A stretch of 64,000 nt of DNA from Escherichia coli (GTDB lineage: Bacteria > Pseudomonadota > Gammaproteobacteria > Enterobacterales > Enterobacteriaceae), in the NCBI RefSeq assembly GCF_011045215.1, contig NZ_CP049201.1. One strand, given 5' to 3'. Made by a program: the position numbers and the translations under genes. This document shows, one piece after another, positions 46,840-46,885 of this stretch (position 1 is the first letter of the stretch; each line of letters opens with the position of its first letter). The notes below the pieces were generated by a model. That model searched no databases and was not told where the DNA came from. It saw only the letters and a program-made list of their open reading frames with translations.

Positions 46840-46885
46840 ACAAACGATCGATACTAACGATCGATACCTGTTTTATCGATCGTTT
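46840..46885 (-). promoter_or_regulatory. agn43 phase-variation switch region (three Dam GATC sites; expected OxyR operator)
   Basis: GATC at 46846, 46859 and 46878 within AAACGATCGATACTAACGATCGATACCTGTTTTATCGATCGTTTT, about 220-250 bp upstream of the Ag43 start codon. Confidence 0.8.

Follow-up and report, generated by a model that had tools for sequence, protein, structure and literature searches.

A 64-kb stretch of Escherichia coli DNA (64,000 nucleotides, hereafter the window) very probably carries the Dam/OxyR phase-variation switch of an antigen 43 (agn43/flu/cah) allele, and homology and conservation indicate that this copy would itself vary in phase. Three GATC sites stand in front of an Ag43-family gene, apparently at and just downstream of the start of a sigma-70 promoter placed by homology; the sequence anatomy, the homology, the conservation and the gene content described below were observed directly. 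The element is already known: it has had textbook status as a Dam/OxyR switch since 1999-2002, the window holds its commonest natural form, and no new biology is involved. Probably only some cells of a population express the island-borne adhesin operon to which it belongs, with genes for Ag43, YeeR and IrmA, a mimic of a cytokine receptor; such partial-population expression matters for the reading of expression, aggregation, biofilm and vaccine-antigen data of the strain. For specialists, two features may deserve attention, namely that natural switches mostly belong to a class unlike the K-12 model in its OxyR site, and that Ag43 coding sequences are essentially free of GATC.

According to the published model, OxyR bound to unmethylated sites represses transcription and blocks Dam, and Dam methylation in turn keeps OxyR off, so that both the ON and the OFF state are inherited (PMC3764049, PMC13337833, PMC4872104). 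On the hemimethylated DNA left by replication, Dam and OxyR compete, with switching at about 10^-3 per generation (PMC3764049, PMC13337833, PMC4872104, PMC2909390). Three GATCs at similar spacing occur in each of the two agn43 allelic groups, also in the one whose passenger domain is shorter (Chaudhuri et al., PMC2808357). In the window, the gene and its three sites are arranged as follows.

43779-46628, minus strand: Ag43/Cah-family autotransporter gene, 949 aa, protein beginning MKRHLNT, NCBIfam NF033177 equivalog
46878-46881: GATC-I, its G at 46881 on the minus strand and taken as the putative +1; aligns with K-12 GATC-I (position 1818 of the K-12 locus, L001)
46859-46862: GATC-II, putative +20 to +23; aligns with K-12 GATC-II, 19 bp from GATC-I
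46846-46849: GATC-III, putative +33 to +36; aligns with K-12 GATC-III, 13 bp from GATC-II

The start codon of the gene is the ATG at 46628 (MKRHLNTSYRLVWNH...), which is preceded by AAGGA; the open reading frame list had extended the gene to an ATG at 46703. The NF033177 model ("Ag43/Cah family autotransporter adhesin") is matched over positions 1-948 of 948 with 1973 bits against a cutoff of 1200, and the closest solved structures to the passenger domain are those of Ag43 itself (7KOH and 7KO9). A preliminary description had placed three GATCs within about 36 bp, some 220-250 bp upstream of the Ag43 start. The positions bear this out: the sites begin at 46846, 46859 and 46878, and their G residues lie 253 (GATC-I), 234 (GATC-II) and 221 bp (GATC-III) upstream of the ATG, a range of 221-253 bp.

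Clustering of GATC is not in itself significant here, because about 1.5 triplets spanning 36 bp or less are expected on average per window under random placement, and because a tighter triplet, with 9-bp spacing, occurs at 22756-22777 within an ordinary 517-aa coding ORF. The overall count is likewise ordinary, with 235 GATCs observed in the 64-kb window against 228 expected. A further cluster, of four GATCs at about 20-bp spacing, occupies 18437-18499. These counts are what could be said for a chance cluster without function, a reading of negligible probability that is refuted by the alignment to K-12 and by the retention of the arrangement in 95 of 101 distinct sequences. The exact pattern GATC-N15-GATC-N9-GATC, moreover, occurs once in the window against 0.02 occurrences expected. 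All three sites lie within copies of the 11-mer TATCGATCGTT, which has no other exact copy in the 64 kb; one copy is inverted and two are direct, generating perfect inverted repeats of 11-12 bp. Exact K-12 spacing, threefold repetition of the 11-mer and base-by-base alignment to K-12 are together far beyond chance. Across the 5.8-kb stretch 43744-49565, the three switch sites are the only GATCs.

The preliminary description had also identified the arrangement with the agn43 Dam/OxyR switch, and comparison with the yeeP-isrC-flu region of K-12 MG1655 upholds that identification: the three sites align one-to-one, in the same orientation relative to the gene and at the same spacing of 19 and 13 bp. 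In K-12 agn43 (flu; CP4-44 prophage, b2000/b4435), as in the window, AATAGAATAAAAC directly precedes the three GATCs, and GATC-II and GATC-III share the half-site ATCGTTnnTATCGAT (46861-46847 in the window). From the -10 hexamer through GATC-III, 38 of 48 bases are identical. The two loci also resemble each other at the terminator hairpin, at the Shine-Dalgarno sequence and where the coding sequence begins (94% identical), in the yeeP-type GTPase gene upstream and in yeeR downstream. The window is unlike K-12 in having lost the central OxyR half-site present there, in its longer leader (253 nt vs 222 nt, with an unrelated middle of 120-150 nt), in its shorter Ag43 protein (949 aa vs 1039 aa) and in its operon, which is truncated in K-12 but has an intact yeeR and irmA in the window.

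The promoter was placed by homology to K-12, and its two hexamers read as follows.

46910-46915, minus strand: putative -35 hexamer TTGCGT (TTGTCC in K-12), separated from the -10 hexamer by a 17-bp spacer
46887-46892, minus strand: -10 hexamer TAGAAT, 5 nt before the G of GATC-I

A generic consensus-based promoter scanner run over the region did not call this promoter, because the -35 element is weak. The sequence TCTCTTG around the -35 element is nevertheless unchanged in K-12 and throughout the two leader classes (see below), and AATAGAATAAAACGATC at the -10 element is identical in K-12 and nearly invariant among 96 distinct metagenome sequences. Wallecha et al. reportedly mapped the agn43 transcription start to the G of GATC-I in 2002. 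The K-12 isrC RNA annotation begins exactly at this base. By 5' RACE, the agn43-yeeR-irmA mRNA of strain EC958 starts 228 bp before the ATG (Moriel et al., 2016, PMC4807369); this is the exact position of the G of GATC-I in agn43a of CFT073, and would be the same base in EC958 if its leader is alike. With the start at the G of GATC-I, as the K-12 annotation and the EC958 RACE suggest, the three sites would span about +1 to +36 of the transcript.

Conservation of the sites was assessed in gut metagenome contigs scanned for the invariant Ag43 ribosome-binding and start sequence, which gave 120 loci; because the loci were picked by their start codon context, the sample is blind to the switch. Together with the window, K-12 and a RefSeq locus, they yielded 101 distinct 420-bp upstream regions. 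All three GATCs at 19 and 13 bp are present in 95 of the 101, and one site is missing in the other six. The losses are point changes affecting GATC-II in L010, L117 and L060, GATC-I in L018 and L091, and GATC-III in L049; TATCAATCG is an example of a change that destroys the site. These one-site variants could be naturally biased or locked forms, or sequencing errors in low-coverage contigs. The 372-bp upstream region as a whole was found in 4017 of 5426 complete E. coli genomes, with a best full-length identity of 97.9%.

The upstream regions fall into two leader classes, as compared in an ungapped, anchored manner (a MAFFT alignment of the 101 sequences puts K-12 in the wrong place within the repeats). 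A long-leader class, to which the window belongs, has GATC-I at about -253 and accounts for 84 of the 101 distinct sequences, and a short, K-12-like class with GATC-I at about -222 accounts for 17. Switch and terminator are common to both classes, and the central 120-150 nt (46845-46700 in the window, 1854-1973 in L001) are unrelated between them. A further difference between the classes is the 7-bp spacer that separates GATC-I from GATC-II, where K-12 has its central OxyR half-site. Within the switch core, the window departs from the long-class majority by two private substitutions, neither of them in a GATC: a C-to-G change in the spacer that separates GATC-II from GATC-III, and an A-to-G change five nucleotides past GATC-III.

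A search of genome contigs with the whole Ag43 protein yielded two contaminant fragments only, and a search of a phage collection with the switch region gave no match. One viral contig (IMGVR_UViG_2534681766_000003, positions 640-2065) contains the end of the GTPase gene, a long-class switch and about 180 nt of leader, and then joins lambdoid prophage genes (DUF968, antiterminator Q, terminase), not Ag43, just before the terminator hairpin; the junction reflects a rearrangement or, alternatively, a prophage boundary inside the agn43 leader. A few records listed as plasmids from other genera also contain long-class switches, among them Klebsiella pneumoniae plasmid ps01 (H59/L128) and a 12.9-kb Salmonella enterica record (H49). 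In the Klebsiella record the switch lies between a GTPase gene and a gene annotated cah; the record also carries what appear to be chromosomal-type genes (purE, ppiB) and may be chimeric.

Two sequences resembling OxyR half-sites can be recognized around the putative transcription start.

46879-46893, minus strand: OxyR-like half-site A, ATAGAATAAAACGAT, matching 8 of 10 consensus positions; overlaps the -10 hexamer and GATC-I
46847-46861, minus strand: OxyR-like half-site C, ATCGTTAGTATCGAT, matching 8 of 10 positions; spans GATC-II and GATC-III

Half-site A, at which binding is predicted, has the same sequence in the window, in K-12 and in the two CFT073 alleles, and half-site C scores 8/10 in all alleles compared; matches of at least 8/10 arise in the window at a rate of 3.3e-4 per position. 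The starts of the two half-sites are 32 bp apart (22 bp plus one helical turn), which is the geometry of reduced OxyR. On the strength of these half-site matches, OxyR binding is plausible here, in details that may differ from K-12.

The full 37-bp OxyR consensus (Toledano et al., 1994; half-site as quoted in PMC2909390) gives a less uniform picture. At the K-12 register, which covers all three GATCs, it scores 14/20 in K-12 and both CFT073 alleles, whereas the window and the long-class majority score 10/20, a drop that arises because the GATC-I to GATC-II spacer reads AAACAGG in place of the K-12 TCTATTT, so that the central CTAT element is gone. The best register in the window and the long class reaches 13/20 and is shifted 10 bp upstream. 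Scanning with this consensus cannot settle OxyR binding, since it is a poor discriminator, with 28 matches of at least 13/20 on both strands of the window. Both the changed register and the fact that no half-sites other than A and C, with starts 32 bp apart, are common to all classes would fit a switch that is present but unlike that of K-12: OxyR might bind with lower affinity, or solely in the extended geometry of its reduced form, and the balance of ON and OFF would be shifted, at the extreme to a gene effectively locked ON and controlled mainly by the leader terminator. Such a functionally shifted long-class switch is a quite improbable reading and the only rival with real weight. All three GATCs, GATC-III included, are kept in 79 of 84 distinct long-class sequences, which is hard to reconcile with an inactive switch. 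[quoted passage not shown] A search of the accessible literature found no direct test of switching in the long-leader class, or of phase variation of Cah; the alleles checked from experimentally studied strains (K-12, CFT073 agn43a and agn43b) all have the short leader.

Related loci place the window copy among known alleles. The UPEC operons (CFT073 agn43a in PAI-pheV and agn43b in PAI-serX; EC958) share with it the three-gene organization, the switch and the upstream GTPase gene, and CFT073 agn43b shares in addition an island at serX. Unlike the window, the CFT073 alleles have a short K-12-type leader, with GATC-I at -228 in agn43a and -224 in agn43b and an OxyR register score of 14/20; agn43b further differs by one extra GATC in its leader and two in its coding sequence. 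The long-leader class corresponds to other 948/949-aa Ag43/Cah alleles, among them cah of EHEC O157:H7. A record labelled O157:H7 EDL933 (H55) contains a long-class switch region 93% identical over 106 bp, and in the Klebsiella record with the gene annotated cah the switch region is 91% identical.

More distant parallels are found in Salmonella/P22 gtr, opvAB and phage Mu mom, where OxyR half-sites with paired GATCs 13 bp apart are subject to Dam-OxyR competition (PMC2909390). The gtr half-sites are spaced in a manner consistent with reduced OxyR (PMC2909390), and the gtr GATCs at -110 and -46, in half-sites A and C, suggest by our own derivation the same 32-bp spacing as in the window. In gtr and opvAB, by contrast, OxyR is both activator and repressor, with alternative sites that lie upstream of the promoter; the window has a single putative repressor site overlapping the start, and shows no homology to these systems beyond the half-site pattern.

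E. coli carries both dam and oxyR, neither of which lies in the 64-kb window. In the mechanism envisaged for the window copy, OxyR binding, methylation states, switching, leader termination and co-transcription are adopted from the literature on K-12 and UPEC alleles. From the sigma-70 promoter (-35 TTGCGT, -10 TAGAAT), transcription would begin at the G of GATC-I (46881) or beside it, and the two half-site-like sequences would bracket this start, one lying on the -10 hexamer and GATC-I and the other on GATC-II and GATC-III. In OFF cells, OxyR would sit on the unmethylated sites, blocking RNA polymerase and keeping Dam away from all three GATCs. Methylation of these sites in ON cells would exclude OxyR and leave transcription free to proceed. 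[quoted passage not shown]

The leader has the following elements.

46881-46629, minus strand: 5' leader RNA, 253 nt, a homologue of IsrC / Rfam IS102; Rfam match at 46647-46883
46654-46687, minus strand: terminator-like hairpin with a 12-bp stem, GCCGGTATCCAC/GTGGGTACCGGC, and a T6 tract
46636-46640, minus strand: Shine-Dalgarno sequence AAGGA, invariant in the alignment of upstream regions

The leader matches the covariance model RF00124 above its gathering score (74.4 bits vs 46, E = 3.2e-11) over model positions 1-206 of 206, and it has the 3' terminator hairpin of an IsrC / IS102 leader; hairpin and T6 tract end 25 nt before the ATG. Between the hairpin and the ATG, identity to K-12 is 94%. 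The middle of the leader (153 nt, compared with 120 nt in K-12) is 45.5% identical to its K-12 counterpart, and a shuffled control gives 46.5%. The regulatory region is thus a mosaic in which switch and terminator form two conserved islands flanking unrelated sequence.

Another reading has the palindromes conserved at the RNA level, as a 5' hairpin of the IsrC/IS102 leader, with the Dam sites being incidental. The Rfam IS102 consensus includes a 9-bp stem formed by the GATC-II and GATC-III repeats, the minimum free energy fold pairs GATC-I with GATC-III, and the perfect inverted repeats of 11-12 nt are present. Compensatory changes, however, were not seen, the stability of the leader is barely above that of shuffled sequences (z = -1.8), and the centroid structure drops the 5' hairpin. 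Function at the DNA level is also apparent elsewhere: in the homologous switch, dam mutants are locked OFF and oxyR mutants locked ON (PMC2909390), and SMRT data for one E. coli strain revealed six unmethylated GATCs upstream of agn43 genes (PMC4752239). A purely RNA-level explanation is therefore highly unlikely, and RNA and DNA roles of the palindromes could coexist.

A Dam/OxyR switch at this position would govern two downstream genes as well as the adhesin gene; the neighbours of the Ag43 gene are as follows.

47000-47911, minus strand: GTPase-family (YeeP-like) gene upstream, its stop codon 84 bp upstream of the -35 hexamer
41142-43664, minus strand: YeeR-family gene, second in the operon, 840 aa, intact
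40611-41066, minus strand: irmA, encoding the interleukin-receptor mimic protein, third in the operon
40558-40586, minus strand: strong terminator-like hairpin, 25 nt after the irmA stop, the probable operon end

The YeeR name comes from the annotation of a RefSeq locus (L002) that is 96% identical to the window. The irmA product matches PDB 5EK5 'IRMA' with E = 1.7e-81, and its counterpart in the RefSeq locus is annotated as IrmA family. Ag43, YeeR and IrmA are encoded by consecutive intact genes on one strand without an intervening terminator; on the minus strand, no other terminator-like site was found from the Ag43 stop to the hairpin at 40558-40586. In UPEC, agn43-yeeR-irmA is co-transcribed and repressed by OxyR, with repression reported in CFT073, EC958 and 83972 (PMC4807369). 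The window genes thus appear to represent the published agn43-yeeR-irmA operon, and by homology to UPEC they would be co-transcribed. The GTPase neighbour is the same as K-12 yeeP and as that of both CFT073 copies.

The operon lies on an island that begins directly after a tRNA-Ser(GGA) gene at 35428-35515 (35516 onward). Judging from its position and the flanking core genes, we take this tRNA gene to be serX. The core genes that flank it match E. coli at 99.7% identity, whereas for the island itself the best match in complete genomes reaches 96.4%. A CP4-type module on the island is oriented towards the tRNA gene, which no integrase-sized ORF adjoins.

The Ag43 coding sequence of the window contains no GATC, against 7.0 expected under a Markov model; synonymous-codon shuffles average 5.9, and 0.1% of them reach zero. 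The K-12 flu coding sequence (L001 2040-5159) is likewise free of GATC against about 8 expected, and 92 distinct complete Ag43 coding sequences from metagenomes have none in 86 cases and one in six, with 7.5 expected, these 92 not being independent because they comprise only two related allelic groups. In CFT073, the coding sequence of agn43a has no GATC and that of agn43b has two. The GTPase side (46882-49565) and a downstream small-gene module (36720-40336; yeeS to yeeW in K-12) are also GATC-free, as are positions 6783-9150 of the K-12 locus. The yeeR gene, which lies between GATC-free modules, is rich in GATC, with 19 sites in the window and 12 in K-12. A search of the accessible literature found no publications on GATC avoidance in agn43. 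Because the avoidance reaches modules far from the switch, general avoidance of GATC by the mobile element is the simpler reading. A rather unlikely, two-part proposal can be set beside it: the long class, which includes the window and dominates the gut-metagenome sample, may with its two half-sites 32 bp apart switch with kinetics or a bias other than those of K-12, and the GATC-free Ag43 coding sequence might have been selected to isolate the regulatory sites from processive Dam or SeqA tracts, and would then not be a side effect of GATC avoidance by the mobile element.

Beyond the GTPase gene, a type I restriction-modification gene set occupies 50310-59651, with an unusually long M subunit (812 aa) and an S subunit of 448 aa. 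The S gene is followed by DarT (218 aa) and DarG (359 aa), named, like the M and S subunits, after the annotation of the RefSeq locus, and then by a 1031-aa ORF, presumed to be HsdR, that is unannotated in that locus. A DarTG toxin-antitoxin/defence pair is thus embedded in the restriction-modification operon.
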